A DNA stretch of 37,845 nucleotides from an uncultured Bacteroidales bacterium (GTDB taxonomy: Bacteria; Bacteroidota; Bacteroidia; Bacteroidales; UBA3663), in contig CACYQQ010000005.1 in assembly GCA_902776605.1 (NCBI GenBank), forward strand, positions 1-37,845. The letters are read 5' to 3'. Under the pieces are notes generated by a model, which was not told the origin of the DNA, ran no database searches, and saw only the letters and a list, made by a program, of their open reading frames with translations. Positions within the stretch are counted from its first letter, which is position 1, and each line of letters begins with the position of its first letter. A program made the translations under genes and the position numbers. Shown in pieces: positions 6,835 to 25,316 of this stretch.

Positions 6835-8478
6835 TCAGTTGAACCACACATACAGCGCCACCATCACCACGGCAAGGGCAATCCACGATGCCCAGACACT
6901 GGGCTGCATCGGTTCTTGGATGCAACGCATGTCCTGTCGGTGGCGAGGCGACTTGTCGCACAGGCTGATGATGACCATCGAAACAATCAGCAGCACAAAG
7001 AGATAGAACGACAGGAGCATGAAGTGCGGCCAACGGATGACACCTGTCACCAGACCGAACTCGGCCGACATCACGGAGGCTGGAATCACTCCATCGGGCA
7101 TGGCGTAATAAAGTATGCCCACCAGGAGACACACCGCCGTGCCGAAGGTCAACGTCAGGTTGGCAGCCAACGGAGTGCAACGTTTCCAGAAGACGCCCAT
7201 CACGAAGACGGCAGCCATGGGCGGAGCGATGAACGAGAGCACCGACTGGAAGATATTGAACAACGGAATATCCTGAATGAGGTCGATTGCCACGCAGATG
7301 ACGATGCTCACCAGGGCACCCAGGATGGTGACAATGTGCGACGTGCGACGAATCTGTACCTCGTCGGCCTCCTGCTGGAAGTTCTTGACGTAGATGTCCA
7401 TAGTAAAGACCGTCGAGAGGGCATTGAGCGCCGAACCGATGGTCGAAACCAAGGCCGCAGTGAGTACCGCCAACACCAACCCCACCATGCCGACGGGGAA
7501 GAGATGGGTCACCATGAACATATACGAATCGTCGGCCTGCGGGGTCTGCTCGAAGACTCCCGTCTTGCAAAGGGCAAAGCAGACGATGCCGGGAATGATA
7601 TAGATAGCAACGTCCAATATCTTGAGCCAACCGCAGAAGTTGGCGCCTTTCTGTCCCTCACGCAACGAACGGGCAGCCAAAACGGGTTGCACCATGCTCT
7701 GGTCGGTGCACCAGAACCAGATGCCCATCACGGGGTAGCCCAACAGGATGGGCAACCACGGGAAATCGGGGTCCGAGAGCGGTTGGAAGAGGTTCCAATA
7801 GTGCACCGGCACAATGTCGGGGTTGGCCAATTGGTCAATGCCTCCCACGAACGAGCCGTCGCCCAACTTGACGATGCCCGCCAGGGTAAGCACGGTCGAG
7901 ACCACAATGAGCAACGTCATCTGATAAACATTGGTATAGGCCACCGCCCTCAACCCGCCCAACATCGTGAAGAAGGCTGAGATGGCCAACAGCAACAGCG
8001 CCGACCAGAACATCGGGATGCCGAACAACTGTCGGATGAGCACGCCTCCGGCGAACAGCGTCAGCGCCAACCACGAGATCAGGATAGTCACAATGGTGTA
8101 CCACGCCAACATCGTCCGCGTCGATGACCCGAACCGCCGTCCCATGAACTCCGGCAGTGTCGAGATTCCCTCCCCTAAGTACCTGGGAGCGAAGACGAAA
8201 GCCAACAGGGCGATGAAGACAAACGCATACCACGCATAGTTGCCCGACACCACTCCGGCTGCAAAACCGCTGGAGCACGACGCTATCAACATCGACGGCC
8301 CCACATTGGTACCCCACATGCTGAGTCCGATGTGGTGCCAACTGAGCGACCGACTGGCCAGGAAGGCACCCTTACCCCCCTGCTTCTGCTGGCGCGATGC
8401 CCACAATCCGATGGCGAGCAGCACCACGAAATAGATGGCCAAGATGGCCCAATCGACAAAATGCAGTTGCGATGTCAT
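6835..8478 (-). CDS. Sodium:solute symporter (SSS/SLC5 sugar type)
   Basis: Many TM helices; TLPEFMGRRFG, GGLRAVAYT, WFWCTDQSMVQ motifs. Confidence 0.95.
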   Translation of the reverse strand: MTSQLHFVDWAILAIYFVVLLAIGLWASRQQKQGGKGAFLASRSLSWHHIGLSMWGTNVGPSMLIASCSSGFAAGVVSGNYAWYAFVFIALLAFVFAPRYLGEGISTLPEFMGRRFGSSTRTMLAWYTIVTILISWLALTLFAGGVLIRQLFGIPMFWSALLLLAISAFFTMLGGLRAVAYTNVYQMTLLIVVSTVLTLAGIVKLGDGSFVGGIDQLANPDIVPVHYWNLFQPLSDPDFPWLPILLGYPVMGIWFWCTDQSMVQPVLAARSLREGQKGANFCGWLKILDVAIYIIPGIVCFALCKTGVFEQTPQADDSYMFMVTHLFPVGMVGLVLAVLTAALVSTIGSALNALSTVFTMDIYVKNFQQEADEVQIRRTSHIVTILGALVSIVICVAIDLIQDIPLFNIFQSVLSFIAPPMAAVFVMGVFWKRCTPLAANLTLTFGTAVCLLVGILYYAMPDGVIPASVMSAEFGLVTGVIRWPHFMLLSFYLFVLLIVSMVIISLCDKSPRHRQDMRCIQEPMQPSVWASWIALAVVMVALYVWFN

Positions 8479-8579
8479 AATTTACTTTTGTCTTTCAGCT
8501 AGTTGAACTGCGGTCATCTGGAGACACGTCTGGTGACCAATTGTCCCCACTACGGACATTGACCTTGATAATCAACTTG

Positions 8580-8587
8580 CAAATATA
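8580..8587 (-). promoter_or_regulatory. -7 promoter box (TATATTTG) for the symporter
   Basis: caaatata on + strand, about 100 bp upstream of the ATG. Confidence 0.6.
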
Positions 8588-9031
8588 ATAAAAAAGAGCT
8601 ACATCTTCGAGTTTTGTTGGCAATTTATGCAATAATCGCTGAATAATTCGATTAAATCGCTGAAAATGCTCCTATGACAAGCCTTATTTCGAAGCTATTA
8701 TTCCCTTTGTGCGCCCCGTTTTCATCCCCGTTGGGCGACTACCGACGGGAGATTCCGTCTCCAAGTGGAATTTTCTGCTCCAACGCCTCACGCCAGGAAT
8801 ATTTTTCCAATAAGCACACCGAAGGAGCATAATTCCCTCACCGTAGGCGCATAAAAGGAAGAGCGAAAGACAAAATTTCTACACTTACCGAATCTTCTTA
8901 GTCAAATATTCTGCTCCCGCAGTTGTATTCAATTCGGTGTCACAGGTGTCATTATGGGCCTTAGTCATTAAGGTCATTAACGCTACAATCATCTACTTCT
9001 CCTCCCCCTTCCCTCCCTTTGACTTTCTACC

Positions 9032-9082
9032 GACCTTCTCCCTTCTTGCTCCCTTTAAAAGGCAGCAAGAAGGCAGAAGGTC
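9032..9082. repeat. Imperfect palindrome; copy 1 of a dispersed 39-bp repeat
   Basis: gaccttctcccttcttgctccctttaaaaggcagcaagaaggcagaaggtc; 37/39 identical to 28700-28738. Confidence 0.8.
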
Positions 9083-9191
9083 AACCTCAAACCAACCATA
9101 GATCAACGGGAGCAGAATAGGATGAAAGGAGTATCGAGCCATTCAAAATGGAGTCTCTTCAGTCCTTATTGATTATCAGCCTATTAAATAC

Positions 9192-9257
9192 TTATCAAAT
9201 AGTTATCCATAGAGTTATCAACATAGTTATGAACAAAATTGTTAATAACTATTCACA
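9192..9257. promoter_or_regulatory. Cluster of DnaA-box-like 9-mers
   Basis: ttatcaaat, ttatccata, ttatcaaca, ttatgaaca at 11-12 bp spacing, then inverted tgttaataa and ctattcaca; consensus is TTATCCACA. Confidence 0.5.
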
Positions 9258-9274
9258 AAAATACACCCAAACCC

Positions 9275-9305
9275 TTGGATATTTCCCTGAAATACAGTAT
9301 ATTTG
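9275..9305 (+). promoter_or_regulatory. Bacteroidetes promoter (TTG-N20-TATATTTG)
   Basis: Canonical -33/-7 boxes and spacing upstream of the structured leader. Confidence 0.75.
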
Positions 9306-9309
9306 CCGC

Positions 9310-9591
9310 ATCAATGAGCCACAGCGGTGGAACCACTCATTGATTTTATTAATCAAAGACGCTTACACGTCAATATCTTCGAATCGAAATCTCGCAAATT
9401 TCCGTCTACTTGAAGGTTTGGCAACGTAATCGTCCATTGTTAGTTAGTAGTATGAATGCATTCTAGTATTTTGCTAGAACGGCATCTATACTTTTTCTGA
9501 CGTGGACTTTCGAACGTTGCTTATCCAAGTAGATGGCAATGCGAGAGCCACGATTCAGATAAGCAACTAGTAAGGAGTCCCCGTCTTTTTA
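9310..9591 (+). ncRNA. Structured 5' leader / candidate two-state RNA switch
   Basis: 5' hairpin 9310-9344; 9381-9436 complementary to 9503-9556; alternative hairpin 9499-9585 followed by a T-run. Confidence 0.6.
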
Positions 9592-9633
9592 TTATTCATA
9601 AGCTAAGGGATGACGCTATTAACTCATTTTATT

Positions 9634-9972
9634 ATGAAAACAAAGTATTTGATGATTTCCGTTCTCTCCTTGTTTTTCTTCTCTTGTGAATCAAAAAAGA
9701 CCAACGCAGAACAAGCCGTGGACAATGCCGTGAAAATCCATGAACAATACATCAAGGATATGAACAATGCAAAAACTAAGGATGAGGCCCAAGCAATTCA
9801 TAAAGAATATCGTGAGCATCTCAAATTTGAATCTACAAAAGTATCCAAAGAGGAACAAGACGAATTTCTCAAAAATGCAGATTGGGAGACCATAAAAAAA
9901 GCAAATGAGGCGTCTGAAAAAGCAAGGGAAGCCAGAGAAAATGCCAAAAAGAGATTTAGAAAGAATAATTAA
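9634..9972 (+). CDS. Small helical lipoprotein, function unknown
   Basis: MKTKYLMISVLSLFFFSC signal peptide II/lipobox; Lys/Glu/Ala-rich body. Confidence 0.8.
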   Translation: MKTKYLMISVLSLFFFSCESKKTNAEQAVDNAVKIHEQYIKDMNNAKTKDEAQAIHKEYREHLKFESTKVSKEEQDEFLKNADWETIKKANEASEKAREARENAKKRFRKNN

Positions 9973-10093
9973 ACGTTATTATATCCTTTCGATAGTGATT
10001 CCCCAAACGCAAATTTTGTTTTAGCTATAATATTACTTTGATTTGACTGATAGCTCATACTTATTTTGCGTCTGAGTGTTGATTAACGACATA

Positions 10094-10150
10094 AAAAATA
10101 ACGGATATGAAGGAAGAGGCTTAAGCCCTTTCTTCATATCCGTTATTTTT
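10094..10150. terminator. Bidirectional intrinsic terminator
   Basis: aaaaataacggatatgaag ... cttcatatccgttattttt between convergent genes. Confidence 0.85.
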
Positions 10151-10209
10151 GGCATTCTACCAAAGTAGTGACCGATTGCTATTATTGGCTATCTCCCCAA
10201 AAGCCCTAT

Positions 10210-13095
10210 TTATCGACCACTTTCTTGTAGTGAATCCTCTTTTGCTTTCATCAACTCCTTAGCGCAGGCGACAGCTTGGTTGGCATTGTCGGTGTAGGCG
10301 TCGGCGCCGATGCGGTCGCAGAACTCCTGGGTGACAGGAGCGCCGCCAATCATGACTTTGACCTGGTCGCGGATGCCGGCCTCCTCGAGGGCGCGGATCA
10401 CTTCGGGCATGTAGGTCATGGTGGTGGTGAGGAGGGCCGACATACTGAGGATGTCGGCGTGTTCACGTTTCACCGCCTCGACGAACTTCTCAGCAGGAAC
10501 ATCGATGCCGAGGTCAACGACCTCAAAACCAGAGCCTTCGAGCATCGAGATGACGAGGTTCTTGCCGATGTCGTGGAGGTCGCCTTTGACCGTACCTACC
10601 ACCACTTTGCCGAGGCTCTCCATCTGCCCGTTGCCGCCATGCGCGGTTTGGTACTCCTTGATGAGCGCCATGGCCGCCTTCATGGTTTTGCCTGCCATAA
10701 GCAGTTGAGGCACAAAGGCTTTACCCTCCTCGAAGCGTTTGCCCAGAATGCCCATTGCGCCTATCATCTCGTTGATGATATCGGTGCCCGGCAGACCGTC
10801 GGCCAACATCTTCTGCACCAAGGGAGTGGCATCGTTCGCCTTGCCCGACAGGATGGCTTGCTGCAAAGGAGTGACCGAAGGAGCCGAATCGGCCGAAGCC
10901 GGCGAAGCGGTGGTCGAAGCAGAAGCCGACGCAACAGCAGGCCATTTGCCTGGTATTCGGGGACTTACGAAGCAACCCGGAGCGGTTTCGACCAACTGAG
11001 CAAGAGCACGCATGTGACCATCGTGCGTACCGCAACAACCGCCCACGATGTTAACGAGATGTTCGTCGAACATCGGCCACATCTGCCGCTGGAAGAGGTC
11101 GGGTTGGGTAGGGAACACGCCATCGGCATCGGGAATGCCCGCATTGGGGAAGACCGAGATATAATAAGGCGTCTCGGAGGCGAGGCGACGGGTGAGGTCG
11201 GTCACCATCGGGATGTCGGGATTGCAGTTGATGCCCACCGAGAGGACATGATAGTCGGGGTGCAACTGCTTGCAGAAGTCAATCACATTCTGTCCCACCA
11301 TGTTGAAGCCTTCGGGCGTGCGCACCGTGAAACTCAGGAAGATAGGCACACGGATGCCCGTCTTCTGCATCGCAGCCATGGCGGCATGGAGATAGGCTTC
11401 ACAGTTCTGCGTGTCGAAGATGGTCTCGTTCAACACGCCATCGACGCCAGCTTCGAGTTGCGCCTCGATCTGCTCTTGGTAGATGGACATGAGTTGCTCG
11501 AAGTTGAGCGATGCGCCCTCCATCGAGATGGTCTCGCGCGTAGGACCGGCACCACCCAACACGTAGCGCGGTTTGTCGGGGTTGGCCAATGTGAAAGCGT
11601 CGGCCAACTGACGTGCCAGCCGACAAGCTGCCAGATTGATTTCACGTGTCCGGTCGGCAAACTGTGCCGGCAACGAACAACGTTGCGCATTGAACGTATT
11701 GGAGGTAATGATGTCCGACCCAGCGGCCAGGAAACGACGGTAGATGTCGCCGATGACGTCCGGGCGCTCGATACTCAGGAACTCGTTGCTGCCACTGGTG
11801 CCCGTGAGGTGGAGGGCATGGATGGTAGTGCCCATGGCGCCGTCGAAAATCAGAATACGTTGGCGCATCAACTCCTCCAATGGGGGACGATTCACCGCCA
11901 AGGGGGCGACGTCGGTAGGCGCAAACTGATTGAGTGCCAACGCCGTACCACGTGGACGCATCTTGCTGGCGCGCACCTCGGCAATGATGCGTTGCGCCTC
12001 TTCGACCTCCTGCTCGTTGTGGAAGTCCATCTCCAGATGCACGCCCTCGGTACCGATGGCCTCCAGAAGAGGTTTCAGTTCGGGCAACGTGACCCACGAG
12101 ATAAGCACACTCTTGCCCCCAGCCAGAATGCGGCGGTAGAGGTCGTACCACTTGGGCGATCCACCTTGCGGTTCGCCGACACCAGGAGTCCACTGGATAG
12201 CCTTCAACTCCTTGATTTCCAACAACGCAGGCAAGTGATGCATGGCTCCCACACCGTCCAGATGATAAATGGTATAGGGGATGCGCTGACATTGCTCGCG
12301 GATGAAAGGTTGGACGAAACGGCGATAATCCTCGTCGCTCAACATGGTCGAGAGATCACATTGCAACTTGGTCATCTTGCCAGGTGCCCATGCCGAGAAG
12401 TAGCAGAAAGCCATCTCGCCATCCTCCTCCCGGATGATGTCGTAGAGTTCGTCGAACACCTGGAAATAGATGTCGTTGATGCGTTGCATCTGGTCGAGCA
12501 AGACCTCGGGTTGCTCCATGATGTCCATCATCACTCGGTCGGTGCCCTTCATGCCTGCCAGCACGTCGATGCCCTCCATCAGGTCGGGCATACCCACATA
12601 GTAGTGGCCTTGCGCCTTCTCCTTGCAGGCTTGGAGCAATGCTTTGTGCAACAAGTAGTTGGGATGATTGGGGTTGAACTGGAAGTCGTCCGTATAATGG
12701 GGGTCGGGGTGAATCCAGATGGTATCGTCGCCCCCCTCAAACTGAGCCCCCAGAATAGCCGACATCGACCCCGGTCCCAACTGCGTGTTGGCGACAGGCA
12801 ACATATCGGCCTTGAGACAGGAGTGGCCGACATACCAATCCAGATAGTTGGCGCGCCACTCGGGGTCGAACCATTTCTGGTCATTGTCCCGAGGCACAGG
12901 GGCACCAGGGATGACATTGCCCGTGCCGAAACCCGTCGAAGTGGCCTCTTGCACCGGAGCCTCGCCAGCATAAGGTCCATGAGGCTGGACGCCCACCTGA
13001 AAGTGCTCCCACATATTGAGCACAATGCCCTTGTGGTTCCACCAATCTATATAGTGCTGTTTAGTTTCAGCCAAGTTTTCTTTCCACGTCTTCAT
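10210..13095 (-). CDS. Corrinoid methyltransferase fusion: URO-D-like domain + homocysteine S-methyltransferase + B12 cap/binding domains
   Basis: aa ~1-375 URO-D-like (LQCD.STMLS, YHLDG, IQWTPG); aa ~405-715 DGAMGT, ETIFD, GINC, PNAG.P, GGCCGT; C-terminal GDLHDIGKNLV, SALLTTT, GGAP. Confidence 0.85.
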   Translation of the reverse strand: MKTWKENLAETKQHYIDWWNHKGIVLNMWEHFQVGVQPHGPYAGEAPVQEATSTGFGTGNVIPGAPVPRDNDQKWFDPEWRANYLDWYVGHSCLKADMLPVANTQLGPGSMSAILGAQFEGGDDTIWIHPDPHYTDDFQFNPNHPNYLLHKALLQACKEKAQGHYYVGMPDLMEGIDVLAGMKGTDRVMMDIMEQPEVLLDQMQRINDIYFQVFDELYDIIREEDGEMAFCYFSAWAPGKMTKLQCDLSTMLSDEDYRRFVQPFIREQCQRIPYTIYHLDGVGAMHHLPALLEIKELKAIQWTPGVGEPQGGSPKWYDLYRRILAGGKSVLISWVTLPELKPLLEAIGTEGVHLEMDFHNEQEVEEAQRIIAEVRASKMRPRGTALALNQFAPTDVAPLAVNRPPLEELMRQRILIFDGAMGTTIHALHLTGTSGSNEFLSIERPDVIGDIYRRFLAAGSDIITSNTFNAQRCSLPAQFADRTREINLAACRLARQLADAFTLANPDKPRYVLGGAGPTRETISMEGASLNFEQLMSIYQEQIEAQLEAGVDGVLNETIFDTQNCEAYLHAAMAAMQKTGIRVPIFLSFTVRTPEGFNMVGQNVIDFCKQLHPDYHVLSVGINCNPDIPMVTDLTRRLASETPYYISVFPNAGIPDADGVFPTQPDLFQRQMWPMFDEHLVNIVGGCCGTHDGHMRALAQLVETAPGCFVSPRIPGKWPAVASASASTTASPASADSAPSVTPLQQAILSGKANDATPLVQKMLADGLPGTDIINEMIGAMGILGKRFEEGKAFVPQLLMAGKTMKAAMALIKEYQTAHGGNGQMESLGKVVVGTVKGDLHDIGKNLVISMLEGSGFEVVDLGIDVPAEKFVEAVKREHADILSMSALLTTTMTYMPEVIRALEEAGIRDQVKVMIGGAPVTQEFCDRIGADAYTDNANQAVACAKELMKAKEDSLQESGR

Positions 13096-13187: not shown

Positions 13188-15461
13188 TTAGATTTCCAAC
13201 CCTTTGAAATCGGACGTAATACGCAGTGTCACAACATCATCGGTCGAATACTCATCGGTGCACTGGATGTCGTGCGACAGGAGGGGTATCTCTGCCTCGG
13301 AACGGACAAAGACGGGCATTTGCTTCAAAGGCACTTCAACCCCATAGTACCATCGACCACCTTGCCAATGCTCGCCCGTGAAGAGGTGAATCCATTCACC
13401 CTCAGGGAGATAAATATCTCGGCGGTTGTCGGAATTCATCACGGGACAGACCAAGAAGGTGTCGCCAAAGTAATATTCATCGTCGATGTGCCAGACGGTG
13501 CGGTCGGCGGGATGGTGATAGAGCAAGGCGCGCACCATCGGATAACCCGTCCGAGTGCACTTCTCGGCCTGTTGGACAATGTAGGGCAACAAGCGGTAAC
13601 GCAATCGCCACCAACGTTTTACGATAGGCGCAATGGTTGGATATTCCCATGGTTCGCGTTTGCAGGTGCCATGATAGCGCATGTGGGAAGTGAAGACACC
13701 GAACTGGGTCCATCGCACATAGATATCGTCGTGCAGCGGCGAGTTCATGAAGTTGGGCAACGAGTGGAAACCCGGCACGTCGTGACTCCAGAACGAGAAG
13801 CCCGACAGACCGAAATGCAAACCACCCTTCAAACTACCTGCCATGCCGTCCCACGAGTGGGCAGAGTCGCCGCCCCAATGCAGTGGATAACGTTGTCCAC
13901 CTGCCCAAGCCGAACGCCCCCAAACAATGCCGTCCCCACACACTTGGCGCGTCACGTCGTAGGCAGAACGTTGATAAAGAATGGAATAGATATTGTTCAA
14001 CTGCTCGGGCGTACGACCATCATGATAGTGCGCATCCATGTGAATATTCTCGCCGAAATCGGTCTTGATGCAAGTCACGCCCATCTCCAGAAGTCGGCGC
14101 AGGAGTCCTTGGTACCACTTCACAGCCTCGGGGTTGGTGAAGTCGATGGTGCCAGCATAGTCGAGGGTTGAGAAGTTGGAGCCCGAACCATTGCTCTTAC
14201 GGTTGGGACGAGGGGCAATATAATTATGTTCGACGGCTTCGGCCAACTGTTCAGCAGCCTCGGCCACATAAGGTAACTGCCAGAGCGAGACGCGAAAACC
14301 CTGTTTCAAGAGGTCCTGCACAAAGCCCTTCGGGTCGGGGAAACGCTCCTCGTTGAACTTCCACTCACACAACCAGTCGGTCTTGAACCACCCCGTGTCG
14401 AGGTGAATCACGTCACACGGATAATGCTCCTGACGGAGACGTCGGCAGATGCCATTCACCTCATCGGCCGAGAAATAGCTCATGCGGCTCATCCAGATGC
14501 CGAAACTCCAAAGTGGCAACATGGGCGAGAAACCTGTCAGCTGTCGGTAGTGATACTGGATGCGCTCGGGCGTCCCGCCTCCTATCACGAAGACATCCAT
14601 CTGCGGTTCTTCGCTCAGGAACTGGGTGGAGCGGGTCGAGTGGTCGGCCAACGACATCTTGCTATAAGCCGATGTGTGATAGAACATTGCGTACATGCGG
14701 CTGCTCATGTAGAACGGCACATTCTTGTAGCAACGGCGATTGTTCACGCCCTGTCCATCCTGATTCTTGAGTTGGAAGGTGCGACCCGAGAGGTCCATCT
14801 TGGTGAACCGCTCTCCACTGCCCACAAAGCATTCATCCGCCTGGCACTCTACCGAGAGTGTGATGCTGTCTATCTTTCCGTTCCGTTGCACATAGGCCAA
14901 CGGCAGGGCATCGTACCTTGGGGGCGAGAAATGGTCGTAGGCCGACAAGTGCACCGCCTTGTCGTTGCCCTCTGGATAGAGCGTCAGGTCGAACGTCTCC
15001 TGCGGTGGGGGCAACAGGTCACTCCAGGGGTCGAGTACAGGGGCACGGTTATCCAATCGGGCATAGATCTTACCCTCAGCATCGAGCACCACAAAGAGAT
15101 CCTTTTCGGTCTCTACCACCTGGAGAGGCAGCACCTTGACCGACGGGTCGAAACAGAGCATCTCGTCATTGTCCAAGTCGCCCGTCAAGGCAGCCAAACG
15201 TTGGTCGCTGAGCCGTACGGTGAGGCGCAAAGTCTGGTTGTTATAAAGGCGCAACAAGACCTTATGTTCCACCCTACCGACCTCCTTGTCGGCCTGCATT
15301 TCGTTCTGTTTCAACTGTTTCTGAAAAGGAACGGTGAACACAACGCCCTGTTCCGTCGCCTCCACTCGTGTGGGCCGACAAGCTATCCACAAGGCCTCAT
15401 CGGCTTGCAGATTGGGGTCAAAATCCAGGAAATCGAACAAATGATAATTGGTCTGTTTCAT
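13188..15461 (-). CDS. GH31 alpha-xylosidase-like glycosidase, cytoplasmic
   Basis: YKNVPF, IHLDTGW, nucleophile KTDFGE, acid/base HWGGD, WSHDVPGF, RWTQFG; no signal peptide. Confidence 0.92.
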   Translation of the reverse strand: MKQTNYHLFDFLDFDPNLQADEALWIACRPTRVEATEQGVVFTVPFQKQLKQNEMQADKEVGRVEHKVLLRLYNNQTLRLTVRLSDQRLAALTGDLDNDEMLCFDPSVKVLPLQVVETEKDLFVVLDAEGKIYARLDNRAPVLDPWSDLLPPPQETFDLTLYPEGNDKAVHLSAYDHFSPPRYDALPLAYVQRNGKIDSITLSVECQADECFVGSGERFTKMDLSGRTFQLKNQDGQGVNNRRCYKNVPFYMSSRMYAMFYHTSAYSKMSLADHSTRSTQFLSEEPQMDVFVIGGGTPERIQYHYRQLTGFSPMLPLWSFGIWMSRMSYFSADEVNGICRRLRQEHYPCDVIHLDTGWFKTDWLCEWKFNEERFPDPKGFVQDLLKQGFRVSLWQLPYVAEAAEQLAEAVEHNYIAPRPNRKSNGSGSNFSTLDYAGTIDFTNPEAVKWYQGLLRRLLEMGVTCIKTDFGENIHMDAHYHDGRTPEQLNNIYSILYQRSAYDVTRQVCGDGIVWGRSAWAGGQRYPLHWGGDSAHSWDGMAGSLKGGLHFGLSGFSFWSHDVPGFHSLPNFMNSPLHDDIYVRWTQFGVFTSHMRYHGTCKREPWEYPTIAPIVKRWWRLRYRLLPYIVQQAEKCTRTGYPMVRALLYHHPADRTVWHIDDEYYFGDTFLVCPVMNSDNRRDIYLPEGEWIHLFTGEHWQGGRWYYGVEVPLKQMPVFVRSEAEIPLLSHDIQCTDEYSTDDVVTLRITSDFKGLEI

Positions 15462-15604: not shown

Positions 15605-17416
15605 TTACTCTTTAAACACAACGTCCTTGCCCACCTGATTCTCGCCAATCTTCCTTTCGGGCATCGCGTTCCCTTGGATAGTGAAGCCGTCGGTGGCTTC
15701 GTCCAGATAGATGTAGAAAGCACGGTTGTTGGTGGCAAAGGGAGCTCGTCCCATGCTATCCAAATGGTTACCGAAGATGGAAGATTTCGGTTGATACGAG
15801 AGCGTATAGATGGCGCCACAATCGTGCAATTGGAGGCCGAAATGCGAGACGTGATTGCAGTTAATATGGTTGTTCTTCATCGGCCACCGACGACGGGAGG
15901 CTCTGTCCTTCGGAGCAGGCATCCACCCCCATCCCATACAGATTCCACTCCACTTGCAATGAGTGACTTCATTGTAGGCAATAATGGTGTTATAGACAAA
16001 ACCTGCATTGATGGCGGGAGCGCCCCAATCCTCCATGCCTACGTGTTGTATCTCGTTGGATGTAATAAAGATGTCGTGGCAAAGCCTCCGCCTATCGGCA
16101 GGCAAGAACGGAGCATGCGTCTCATGACCTCCGGTCGAGAAATCTCCCACCAAGATGGCGGTAGCGCCGATGTCGGAGAAACGGCAATTAAAGATATGGC
16201 AATTCGAAGCGGTCTCGACATAATCTACGGCACATGCGCCCAAGTGGGCAAAATCGCAATCGTCAAAGACGACAAGTTCCACGCCTTGCAGGGTGATGGC
16301 CGATTGTGGACGACCAATCCAGGCCTGGTTTTCGAGCGATGCCTTGTGAGGCAATCCCGGTTCCTGTAGTTTGTAGGCATCGATGATGGGGAATCCGGCC
16401 TGCAAGGTGACCCATCCCTCCCGATTTGGGGTAGTCCACGAGGTATATTCAAAACGGATGCCCGAGAAATAGACATCGTGCACAGGACGTTCCAGACTGC
16501 CCTCCACCTTTACCAACTGGTCGGTGACTGGGACGATGATGGGTTCCGACGGACGTGCACCACCAAGGTCGGGACTGACATAGTATATCAACCCGTCCGA
16601 AGGACGTTGCAGCCATTCGCCCGGCTGATCCAGGCACGACACATGTCCGTAGAGGTTGAACGACGACGAGACTACGCGACCATCCTCCAACGTGTCGTTG
16701 ATGACGGGTTGCGGCCAAGGATGCTCAAACTCGCGGCGACTCTCGGGGTCGTGGAACGAGATGCGGGCCTCGTCCTTGTCCATCCGTATCCCCTTGATAC
16801 GCAACAAAGCGATGGCCCATCGTTGGTGCACCAGCATCCAACCCAGGTCATCACTATGCAATAGTTCCTGATTGATATATTCTTGAGGAATACCGATCTC
16901 GCAACGCGAACGGTCGAAACTGAGCATCGGCAACAGACTGTCCTGCGGCACCAACGAGGCTTGCGGCAAACGCTGTCCTCCCTGCCACAACTGACGGGTC
17001 TCCACCCGACGACCCTGCACACGCGGGGCTTCACATACCCAAATCTGTGGACGCACCTTCGTTGGCACTCCTTGCAGTTCGGACGACGTGGGACGACGCC
17101 ACCCTTGCAACGGCACTCCTCCACACAGAGTTGCCTTGCCGGCATGCTCCGCCCGTATCGAAAAAGCATGGTTCCTCGTTCCGCTATCCTCGGGACGCAA
17201 CCAGAGGGGTTCGGTCAACAAGTAATCGCCATCGGCCAAAGTGATGGAAAAGTTGCCACGATGCAACCGACGTGCCTCTCGCACCTCCCGCAACACGGCC
17301 GACAGGTCTTGTCCTGGCTCGACGCGGATTTCGGTTTTCGATGGACCATCGGCAGCAAAGGCCAGGATGGGCCATACGAAGAGCAGGCAAGTGGCCAGTT
17401 TTGCGAAGAGTTTCAT
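15605..17416 (-). CDS. Secreted right-handed beta-helix protein, GH141-like
   Basis: Signal peptide; G.Y.L..PL.L.PEDSG, LDQPGEW, F.GIRFEYTSW, SGICMGWGW, DCGAIYTL, YIYLDE. Confidence 0.75.
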   Translation of the reverse strand: MKLFAKLATCLLFVWPILAFAADGPSKTEIRVEPGQDLSAVLREVREARRLHRGNFSITLADGDYLLTEPLWLRPEDSGTRNHAFSIRAEHAGKATLCGGVPLQGWRRPTSSELQGVPTKVRPQIWVCEAPRVQGRRVETRQLWQGGQRLPQASLVPQDSLLPMLSFDRSRCEIGIPQEYINQELLHSDDLGWMLVHQRWAIALLRIKGIRMDKDEARISFHDPESRREFEHPWPQPVINDTLEDGRVVSSSFNLYGHVSCLDQPGEWLQRPSDGLIYYVSPDLGGARPSEPIIVPVTDQLVKVEGSLERPVHDVYFSGIRFEYTSWTTPNREGWVTLQAGFPIIDAYKLQEPGLPHKASLENQAWIGRPQSAITLQGVELVVFDDCDFAHLGACAVDYVETASNCHIFNCRFSDIGATAILVGDFSTGGHETHAPFLPADRRRLCHDIFITSNEIQHVGMEDWGAPAINAGFVYNTIIAYNEVTHCKWSGICMGWGWMPAPKDRASRRRWPMKNNHINCNHVSHFGLQLHDCGAIYTLSYQPKSSIFGNHLDSMGRAPFATNNRAFYIYLDEATDGFTIQGNAMPERKIGENQVGKDVVFKE

Positions 17417-25243: not shown

Positions 25244-25316
25244 TCGGGGTGACCCGACTCGAACGGGCGGCCTCTACGTCCCGAACGTAGCGCGCTACCA
25301 ACTGCGCCACACCCCG
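25244..25316 (-). tRNA. tRNA-Pro (anticodon CGG)
   Basis: CGGGGTG acceptor stem, TGGCGCAGTTGGTAGCGC D-arm, CTACG-TTCGGGA-CGTAG anticodon arm, GTTCGAGTC T-loop. Confidence 0.97.

Follow-up and report, generated by a model that had tools for sequence, protein, structure and literature searches.

Probable stripping of methyl groups from plant sugars to form methionine by a single-chain corrinoid protein of a rumen bacterium, as read from its sequence

The DNA analyzed here is a stretch of 37,845 nucleotides (contig CACYQQ010000005.1 of assembly GCA_902776605.1, hereafter the window) from an uncultured member of the Bacteroidales. Its subject is one gene that joins, in a single chain of 961 residues, an N-terminal barrel (N-domain) with the predicted fold of uroporphyrinogen decarboxylase (URO-D), a homocysteine S-methyltransferase barrel and a cobalamin (B12) domain. 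This fusion is best read as a B12-dependent demethylase of a pectin-derived methyl sugar, with methionine as the product, a role revised from the folate-free methionine synthase with aromatic donors that had been proposed in a first-pass annotation of the same DNA. The relay from donor to B12 to homocysteine that was part of that proposal is retained, since it best fits all the architectures found (a split operon, a swap of acceptor barrels and a predicted domain interface); the role and the donor are what changed. The parts of this reading carry different weights. A relay in which the N-domain acts as donor module is quite likely, and a glycan-derived methyl sugar as the methyl donor is slightly favored. 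The reading as a whole, a single-chain corrinoid demethylase of a methyl-ether sugar of rhamnogalacturonan-II (RG-II) with homocysteine as acceptor, has about an even chance of being right, and 2-O-methyl-xylose in particular is put forward only tentatively as the donor.

The fusion gene was described at the outset as one open reading frame, and it holds up as such. Its layout, with invariance counted per column over 16 aligned fused homologs, is the following.

10210..13095, minus strand: whole fusion open reading frame, including the stop codon at 10210-12 (961 aa, ATG start, frame intact)
11956..13095, minus strand: N-domain, residues 1-380, a URO-D-fold (beta/alpha)8 barrel by predicted structure, proposed as a donor-side methyltransferase (methyltransferase I, MT I)
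11884..11955, minus strand: linker 1, residues 381-404, variable (0/24 columns invariant; predicted local distance difference test score, pLDDT, about 50 or less from residue 381)
10978..11883, minus strand: homocysteine S-methyltransferase barrel of MetH type (PF02574), residues 405-706, the acceptor module (methyltransferase II, MT II)
10870..10977, minus strand: linker 2, residues 707-742, rich in Ala, Ser and Pro (0/36 columns invariant)
10651..10869, minus strand: B12 cap, a four-helix bundle, residues 743-815 (PF02607, 2e-15)
10261..10611, minus strand: B12-binding Rossmann domain, residues 829-945, with DxHxxG (D839, H841, G844) and SxL (PF02310, 1.7e-28)

Pfam places S-methyl_trans at residues 415-701 (1.4e-68), B12-binding_2 at 744-813 (2e-15) and B12-binding at 829-942 (1.7e-28), and the translation carries the motifs HLD (278-280), DGAMGT (418-423), GINC (621-624), GGCCGT (685-690), DLHDIG (839-844) and SALLTTT (886-892). 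The zinc ligands C624, C687 and C688 and the B12-site residues D839, H841 and G844 are invariant in 16/16 fused homologs, and the intact homocysteine domain with its three zinc cysteines, the DxHxxG domain and the variable Ala/Pro/Ser linkers are thus confirmed as first described. The same is true of the stated lack of a pterin-binding or S-adenosylmethionine (AdoMet) reactivation domain in the chain: Pfam finds neither Pterin_bind (PF00809, E up to 1) nor Met_synt_B12 (PF02965) in the fusion protein, nor does the MetE-type catalytic domain (PF01717) match it. Compared with MetH at the sequence level, the fusion has the zinc-binding three-cysteine homocysteine barrel and the B12 cap and Rossmann domains, and it lacks the pterin barrel, the activation domain and a score above the curated cut-off (TIGR02082, 372.3 bits against 1010.85; PRK09490, 336.5 against 1497). 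The NCBIfam MetH model covers it in two pieces only, at positions 2-314 and 640-863. The closest PDB chains to the homocysteine barrel are full-length MetH proteins (9ssp, 8g3h and 8ssc, E 3e-63 to 1e-52), whereas the B12 domain is nearer to stand-alone corrinoid proteins (1y80, 5e-51; MttC 7xcn, 1e-43) than to that of MetH (1bmt, 4.7e-28), with 4jgi and 3ezx as further stand-alone corrinoid proteins among its best PDB relatives. TIGR02370 (methyltransferase cognate corrinoid protein) scores 200.8 bits on the cap and Rossmann unit, just under its cut-off of 215.3. Across the fused homologs the N-domain is the most constrained module, with 199/380 columns invariant as against 63/302 in the homocysteine barrel.

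The fold of the N-domain can be named by structure only, because sequence searches stay under significance. A phmmer search of the PDB returned chance matches only, the whole fusion protein matches no NCBIfam model of URO-D type, such as TIGR01463, at E up to 1, and a profile of the N-domain family has CdmB as its best PDB match (E 0.17), with a MetE at E 0.65. An AlphaFold2 model built from the family alignment (pLDDT 91.4, pTM 0.89) was aligned with VIA-align against 48,161 PDB representative chains. Among the 50 best matches, MtaA (4ay7) reached Z 19.3 over 297 aligned residues at an rmsd of 3.4 Å and uroporphyrinogen decarboxylases Z 17.8-19.3 (4exq, Z 19.3), followed by MetE-type barrels at Z 11.5-13.1; unrelated TIM barrels reached Z 10 at most, and no pterin-binding barrel appears among these 50. 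Foldseek gives 4ay8 as the best match (E 1.7e-8). The modeled N-domain is accordingly of the URO-D-type (beta/alpha)8 fold, as the first-pass annotation had guessed from letters that could not by themselves reach that assignment, and it does not turn out to be the pterin-binding barrel that would have told against that proposal. The family is large: an exhaustive HMMER search yielded 1,960 cluster representatives (50% clustering) at E <=0.001, and most of the best 150 members stand alone, with lengths of about 350-380 aa and identities of 26-41%; a protein atlas shows such clusters to consist mostly of Bacillota 'hypothetical proteins'. Pfam URO-D touches 6/41 aligned members (E 0.01 or better) and the stand-alone homologs P0136 and P0145 have no NCBIfam match at E up to 0.001; by these sequence models, no Pfam or NCBIfam entry names the family. 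Residues G116, W127, D247, H278, D280 and G281 are invariant over its whole breadth.

The window belongs to a bin of 280 contigs that is 79.8% complete, a degree of fragmentation that would suit an assembly chimera, as had been raised for the fusion from the start, or a pseudogene. That explanation has a negligible probability; the frame is intact, and homologs of the same architecture and contigs across both junctions refute it. A protein database search scored 8,000 candidates and gave 3,577 matches, of which the best 120 were inspected; all 120 carry the same three Pfam domains in 896-1033 aa at 52-90% identity, under source annotations that read only 'homocysteine S-methyltransferase family protein' or 'methyltransferase cognate corrinoid protein'. 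On contigs from one genome per species, a relative of the fusion is encoded in 451/599 candidate stretches. The best 80 of these, with flanks as stored, are referred to below as the related loci; they come from Prevotella, Prevotellaceae, Duncaniella, Muribaculaceae and other Bacteroidales, with Palleniella muris, Prevotella pectinovora, Xylanibacter caecicola, Marseilla massiliensis and Prevotella sp. tf2-5 as cultured carriers. The window stretch was also found in sequencing runs that 15 studies made of bovine and other animal guts. Contigs from runs of other studies bridge the junction between the homocysteine and B12 domains (X2 record 18, X3 record 28 and, in an RNA library, X16 record 10) and that between the N-domain and the homocysteine barrel (X16 record 11); the gap between the fusion and the GH31 gene upstream of it is bridged in four runs. 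Contigs from RNA libraries denote presence in the library, not transcription.

The methyl donor is suggested by the genes with which the fusion travels. Three of them flank it in the window.

15605..17416, minus strand: glycoside hydrolase of family 141 (GH141; Pfam GH141_M), 603 aa, with an N-terminal signal peptide by eye, homolog of BT_1002
13188..15461, minus strand: glycoside hydrolase of family 31 (GH31; Pfam GH31), 757 aa, with no signal peptide by eye
6835..8478, minus strand: sodium:solute symporter (SSF; Pfam SSF), 547 aa

In the same genus the order is GH141-GH31-fusion-symporter, with GH31, fusion and symporter together in 5/7 loci and all four genes in 4/7. The GH31-fusion-SSF genes are tightly packed there, with 4-bp overlaps or short gaps, and their order is kept among loci whose fusion proteins are only 53-89% identical. 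SSF is present in 59/80 related loci, immediately downstream of the fusion in 46; GH31 is present in 50/80, GH141 in 43/80 and L-fucose isomerase (FucI) in 14/80, in some of which it immediately precedes the fusion. At least one of GH31, GH141, FucI, GH106, GH78 and the rhamnose mutarotase RhaM occurs in 58/80. These conserved neighbors are glycan genes (GH141, GH31, SSF, FucI), and the acetogen-type aromatic O-methyl donor that had been suggested finds no support among them.

The GH141 protein matches the BT_1002 structure 5mqp nearly over its full length (residues 31-596, E 1.8e-97). Residues 1-755 of the GH31 protein align with PDB 5f7c at 1139 bits, the YicI alpha-xylosidases coming next. 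The entry 5f7c, which we take to be a B. thetaiotaomicron protein and on which a literature search turned up nothing relevant, is deposited only as 'Alpha-glucosidase', that is, as a solved structure of this GH31 family without an assigned substrate. The fusion itself has no signal peptide. The one RG-II linkage that B. thetaiotaomicron leaves uncut is reportedly, from a 2017 study, that of the disaccharide 2-O-methyl-xylose-alpha-1,3-fucose. Published passages have this organism cleaving all RG-II linkages but one (PMC12282258) and BT1002 releasing 2-O-methyl-D-xylose-alpha-1,3-L-fucose from RG-II chain A (PMC10154630).

The same parts occur in other arrangements, and these point to the N-domain as a donor module. 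In genome G185 (locus L192) the system is split into separate genes that all lie on the same strand. The set comprises GH31 and genes for a hydrolase, a 353-aa N-domain protein and the symporter, an IS200-like gene, and then GH141 together with methyl-transfer genes that encode a 296-aa homocysteine methyltransferase, a 223-aa corrinoid protein, an MtaA-like protein and an activation-like protein. The IS200-like transposase gene lies inside this operon (G185:C36, 6788-7234), between the symporter and the homocysteine methyltransferase. Locus L193 of G174 has the same set minus the homocysteine gene; in G099 and G218 the N-domain gene, the symporter and a URO-D protein stand together, with GH31 too in G218 (L196), and the MtaA-like gene accompanies the system in L192-L196. 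The metagenome loci L113 (genes assigned by Pfam) and L135 (by shared clusters) combine a corrinoid protein, an N-domain protein, a homocysteine methyltransferase, DUF1638, RACo and URO-D paralogs. Protein P0163 (975 aa) presents a swap of the acceptor, since its residues 1-264 form a methyl-tetrahydrofolate:corrinoid methyltransferase (2.5e-103), residues 287-484 a corrinoid domain and residues 582-913 a homolog of the N-domain at 33% identity. Proteins of this type (with P0273-P0391) are encoded on hundreds of contigs, and one member is NCBI's 'cobalamin-dependent protein [Blautia faecis]'. The N-domain looks like a donor-side MT I, in that its family turns up repeatedly together with a corrinoid domain and one or the other of two acceptor barrels.

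A complex prediction between the N-domain (residues 1-385) and the B12 domain (740-955) gave an interface score of 0.61, the best of 3 controls scoring 0.00. The mark applied is reached by 58/80 solved complexes and by 2/110 mismatched pairs, counts that are rough here because the prediction used an alignment of its own. Its runs agree in at least 94% of contacts, with a pLDDT of at least 83 for the partner. On the N-domain the predicted contacts are made by residues 185-194 and 251-256, close to the invariant positions D191 and D247; on the B12 domain they involve the cap helix 794-803 and, beside H841, the loop 842-846. Complexes of corrinoid proteins with methyltransferases have already been solved, and likeness to them may contribute to this pass.

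As for the physiological role, the fusion is patchily distributed. The N-domain was found in 9/41 relatives, including the window genome, in 7/24 other genomes of the genus and in 14/196 high-quality genomes drawn evenly from the order. Canonical MetH, scored above its curated cut-off, is encoded in 5/5 same-genus carriers of the fusion and in 7/9 high-quality carriers of the order. The remaining two high-quality carriers are G153, with a 783-aa MetH that lacks the activation domain, and G156, with a four-module variant of the fusion. Because canonical MetH coexists with it, the fusion is not there to replace MetH: the gene is accessory, and 'methionine synthase', which had been offered as its function, names the reaction and not the reason for the gene.

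The G156 variant (L199, C29, 9110-12859; same genus) is a 1249-aa protein encoded in the same operon, with an insert of 325 aa between the homocysteine barrel and the B12 domain. The insert is weakly pterin-barrel-like (19.3 Pfam bits, as against a cut-off of 25.5), the MetH model extends across it and it has no relatives except itself; no other MetH was found in G156, which is 96% complete, and on its sequence the variant may be a dual-donor methionine synthase. One could suppose that the fusion is an unconventional MetH, an ordinary folate-dependent synthase whose N-domain, MetE-like or URO-D-like, binds 5-methyl-tetrahydrofolate. MetE barrels, which bind methyl-tetrahydrofolate, are the next-best structural matches (Z 12-13), and methylenetetrahydrofolate reductase (MTHFR) is present in the window genome. 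This is nevertheless very improbable: an N-domain of that kind would be redundant in P0163, which has a genuine pterin barrel; the G156 variant retains its N-domain beside a pterin-like insert; and the gene is a patchy one in a glycan operon whose carriers mostly encode canonical MetH.

The preferred reading, a corrinoid demethylase of an RG-II methyl sugar, would work as follows. Secreted GH141 would release 2-O-methyl-D-xylose-alpha-1,3-L-fucose from RG-II, the sodium:solute symporter would import the disaccharide and cytoplasmic GH31 would split it, with the fusion stripping the 2-O-methyl group from the free sugar or from the disaccharide. Within the fusion, the methylated substrate would be bound by the N-domain, which would offer the methyl group to the cob(I)amide carried by the C-terminal B12 domain, and the resulting methyl-Co(III) would swing to the MetH-type zinc barrel, where homocysteine would be methylated to methionine with no folate involved; it is in this direction that we infer the transfer to run. 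Homocysteine would thereby serve as a methyl sink in an organism without the Wood-Ljungdahl pathway, and methionine would be a by-product. In Blautia, where methyl-tetrahydrofolate has a use, a folate barrel is joined to the same donor family. In its broadest form the proposal would make the fusion the first corrinoid O-demethylase for methyl-ether sugars and the missing anaerobic step in the use of 2-O-methyl-xylose-alpha-1,3-fucose by Prevotella-type bacteria of gut and rumen, with the N-domain as a new, widespread and sugar-specific MT I family whose acceptors differ (homocysteine in Bacteroidales, tetrahydrofolate in Blautia); we regard this as possible, at somewhat less than even chances.

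Several observations weigh against the demethylase reading, and they concern its chemistry, the sequence of the N-domain, the neighboring genes, the stand-alone homologs and the reactivation of cobalamin. Co(I) attacks aliphatic methyl ethers only poorly, and we know of no corrinoid enzyme that demethylates a sugar; a literature search, from whose coverage subscription journals were largely absent, gave no description of the fusion architecture or of corrinoid-dependent sugar demethylation. Both methyl sugars of RG-II are 2-O-methyl aldoses, and in the open-chain form an oxygen beside the carbonyl would be a better leaving group, which might mitigate the first difficulty. Pfam URO-D (PF01208) gives the N-domain 11.1 bits (E 0.2, over 44 residues), short of the cut-off of 23.9, and a profile-profile comparison with neighboring MtaA-like proteins is not significant (probability 0.2-0.4%). 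The MtaA-type HxC...C zinc site has no counterpart in the N-domain, which reads H278-L-D280 with no conserved cysteine partner seen. The HLD that had been taken to stand in place of HxC is present at 278-280, then, and its equivalence to that motif is hinted at only by a low-confidence alignment, a relaxed hhalign run against the MtaA-like neighbors that pairs H278 with H230 and D280 with C232 (E 0.13, probability 0.4%). In the passages of PMC13222342 consulted, zinc is not universal among MT I enzymes, and the UroD superfamily includes the donor-side MT I enzymes OdmB, VdmB, MtvB, MtoB, CdmB and CmuA. Among the neighbors, the best named family for the GH31 protein is alpha-xylosidase, at 468 NCBIfam bits, below the cut-off of 606.

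In 22/80 related loci none of the counted sugar genes is present, several of them being short contigs. This would fit the same relay working on a non-sugar donor, such as methanol from pectin methyl esters, methoxylated aromatics of the plant cell wall, methylamine or methylthiol, in which case the glycan neighbors would reflect shared growth on plant cell walls. The source samples are bovine gut, rich in plant material, and the characterized UroD-superfamily MT I enzymes act on methoxy-aromatics and halomethanes, according to passages of PMC13222342. We consider such a donor unlikely. Shared growth on plant material does not sit well with a tight GH31-fusion-SSF order that is kept at 53-89% identity and in the split form of other families, nor with FucI directly upstream of the fusion in some loci, and stand-alone homologs of the N-domain on unrelated metagenome contigs again pair with GH31, GH141 and sugar-acid pathway genes.

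These stand-alone homologs are in turn the source of another objection. In 80 metagenome loci that encode them (the N-domain gene was recovered by open reading frame calling in 68, and many contigs are short), GH31 occurs in 17/80, a B12-binding gene lies within 8 kb in only 4/80 and a homocysteine methyltransferase in only 2/80. Long contigs (L112, L117, L121-L127) have the N-domain gene with GH141, an MFS_2 sugar symporter, GH31, an enolase-superfamily dehydratase, an altronate-dehydratase-like protein and a GFO/IDH/MocA oxidoreductase, and no B12 gene within 8 kb; judged from their gene content, these clusters have the look of an oxidative route for fucose or a pentose. With a B12 gene in only 4/80, the N-domain family may act corrinoid-free in some organisms. 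At the stand-alone loci the partner may be encoded elsewhere, or the chemistry may be corrinoid-free, possibly a corrinoid-free handling of the same sugar. Among five Bacteroidales loci, GH31 lies beside the stand-alone homolog (53-58% identity) in 4/5, and the five Bacteroidales genomes checked do have a partner at another site, each encoding at least one frame of 223-244 aa with a B12 cap domain besides MetH.

The N-domain might then be no methyltransferase at all and rather a sugar-binding or sugar-converting barrel (for example a lyase, isomerase or decarboxylase that acts on the product of GH31), with the homocysteine-B12 core methylated by a neighbor of MtaA/CmuA type. Such a neighbor exists: a full-length URO-D/MtaA/CmuA-family protein of 336 aa, with HNC...GCD motifs, occurs in 42/80 related loci (Pfam 5.8e-58, under the cut-offs of the named NCBIfam models) as well as in L192-L196, and it could be the real donor-side enzyme where present. 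The GFO/IDH/MocA oxidoreductase beside some homologs would, in our view, suit removal of the ether by oxidation and elimination. A non-methyltransferase N-domain is quite unlikely all the same. Searches of the window genome and of G014, G003 and G019 of its clade gave no URO-D-family protein, and there the homocysteine-B12 core would be left without a donor; in P0163 a corrinoid domain and a folate barrel are fused with a member of the N-domain family, and the protein has no further methyltransferase module; the fusion's own B12 domain is the only one across the 80 related loci; and the N-domain is predicted to meet that domain at an interface that the controls do not reproduce.

With regard to reactivation of the cobalamin, the absence of an AdoMet reactivation domain that had been claimed is true of the fusion chain and not of its surroundings, as a separate 228-aa protein matching the C-terminal half of the MetH activation domain (3.1e-14) lies within 10 kb in 38/80 related loci. 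In G014, G003 and G019 the only activation domain found is that of MetH itself, and neither these genomes nor that of the window yielded a short activation-like protein encoded on its own. No Met_synt_B12 (PF02965) was found in the window genome at its 79.8% completeness, and RACo (RACo_C_ter) was found in 0/5 genomes of the clade (G000, G014, G003, G019 and G006, 78-86% complete).

Related gene sets were also observed away from the fusion. In G013 (L190, C10, 3404-7847) and G010 (L191, C37, 3147-7590) an operon apart from the fusion holds a fucokinase/fucose-1-phosphate guanylyltransferase-like gene (924 aa), an MtaA-like URO-D gene (341 aa) and an activation-domain-like gene (233 aa), and it is a second link between methyltransferase parts and fucose. 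In G099 (L202, C21, 7183-9542) and G218 (L204, C23, 5035-7384), genes for a corrinoid protein (222-231 aa), a homocysteine methyltransferase (296 aa) and an activation-like protein (235-240 aa) form an operon away from the N-domain gene, which is a cobalamin core without a donor module. At L205 a second corrinoid protein adjoins a pterin-type methyltransferase.

In the window genome, MetE (Meth_synt_2, PF01717) has no match at the completeness of this bin. On contig C213 (L004, G000:C213, 409-2418) MTHFR (317 aa) is followed by a homocysteine barrel of 327 aa and by nothing MetH-like on the rest of the contig. This barrel is 74% identical to residues 49-350 of the G010 MetH, after which its frame ends, and because the genome is in 280 contigs a truncation and a misassembly look alike here. 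The pterin-binding matches of this genome do not belong to MetH: the one on C85 is a FolP-like frame (296 aa) and that on C271 a FolP-like fragment unlike the MetH of relatives. A stand-alone methyl-tetrahydrofolate barrel serving the fusion in this genome was accordingly dropped as an idea.

The remaining features of the window around the operon are the following.

8479..10209, no strand: insert of low GC content, 1.7 kb, between fusion and symporter (GC 0.377 in 9001-10000)
9610-9972, plus strand: lipoprotein-like open reading frame in the insert, 120 aa, by sequence reading
about 10094-10150, minus strand: inverted repeat and T-run just past the fusion stop, by eye, not listed by the terminator scan
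25244-25316, minus strand: tRNA gene, the sole Rfam match in the window

The insert is absent in 6/7 same-genus loci, where the symporter directly follows the fusion, and its part 9656-10012 is almost uncovered in 4 other runs; the uncovered parts 8585-8941 and 9656-10012 in RNA runs carry no evidential weight beyond this observation. An Rfam scan of the window gave no riboswitch near the operon, and a promoter and terminator scan of the window gave nothing usable.

To our knowledge, only oxygen-dependent routes exist for removing sugar methyl ethers, and B12-based removal, if the demethylase reading is true, would be a new enzyme chemistry of anaerobes. It would account for the consumption, in gut and rumen, of the fragment of the most complex plant pectin that resists breakdown longest, give a role to the B12 need of common Prevotella, Duncaniella and related Bacteroidales, and open a direct route from dietary plant methyl groups to bacterial methionine. 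It would further define a large unnamed protein family and show that corrinoid methyltransferases exchange their acceptor barrel from lineage to lineage in keeping with one-carbon metabolism. Even with the substrate wrong, the chain of URO-D-fold barrel, homocysteine barrel and B12 domain and its split forms are new to the families tested and to the searchable literature.

Comparison with known systems sets the fusion apart from each of them in a different respect. With MetH it shares the zinc-binding three-cysteine homocysteine barrel, the B12 cap and Rossmann domain with DxHxxG and, if the relay holds, a B12 domain that shuttles between barrels; unlike MetH, it lacks the pterin barrel and the AdoMet activation domain, begins with an additional barrel of URO-D fold, carries a B12 domain that is nearer to stand-alone corrinoid proteins, and coexists with a true MetH. 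The MesA-D proteins likewise make methionine from homocysteine and a methyl-corrinoid without folate, and they are relatives of the MetE catalytic domain, as described in passages of PMC7857596, whereas the homocysteine site of the fusion is of the PF02574 family. The words uroporphyrinogen, PF02574, fused and fusion are absent from that 2021 paper on folate-independent methionine synthases, and the searched passages of it and of the GapMind 2026 paper make no mention of the fusion. The MtgBCD system for glycine betaine demethylation in Ruegeria pomeroyi resembles the fusion in placing a substrate-specific methyltransferase on a cobalamin core shared with methionine synthesis, and differs from it in its MttB-family donor, its folate-linked bidirectional methyltransferase, its separate subunits and its occurrence in aerobic marine bacteria (PMC12478193).

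The chloromethane methyltransferase CmuA is, in passages of PMC13222342, a UroD-superfamily MT I joined to a corrinoid domain in one chain, as in the fusion; the likeness of the N-domain is at the level of fold only, and the acceptor of the CmuA/CmuB system is separate and folate-dependent, whereas the fusion has its acceptor, a homocysteine barrel, within the chain itself. The three-component O-demethylases of acetogens and CdmBCA pass a substrate methyl group to Co(I) and on to an acceptor through a UroD-fold MT I, zinc-free in the case of CdmB (same passages of PMC13222342), as is proposed for the fusion. They differ from it in their tetrahydrofolate acceptor, their aromatic methyl ether or halomethane substrates and their ATP-dependent activator of RACo type; the fusion has its modules in one chain, a homocysteine acceptor, a glycan context and no folate-dependent MT II, and no RACo was found in the five clade genomes. 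Marine Bacteroidota demethylate 6-O-methyl-galactose with a cytochrome P450 enzyme that needs oxygen and sets formaldehyde free. If the demethylase reading is right, the fusion would perform the same task as that enzyme, the removal of a methyl ether from a sugar, in an anaerobic manner and with the methyl group conserved as methionine.

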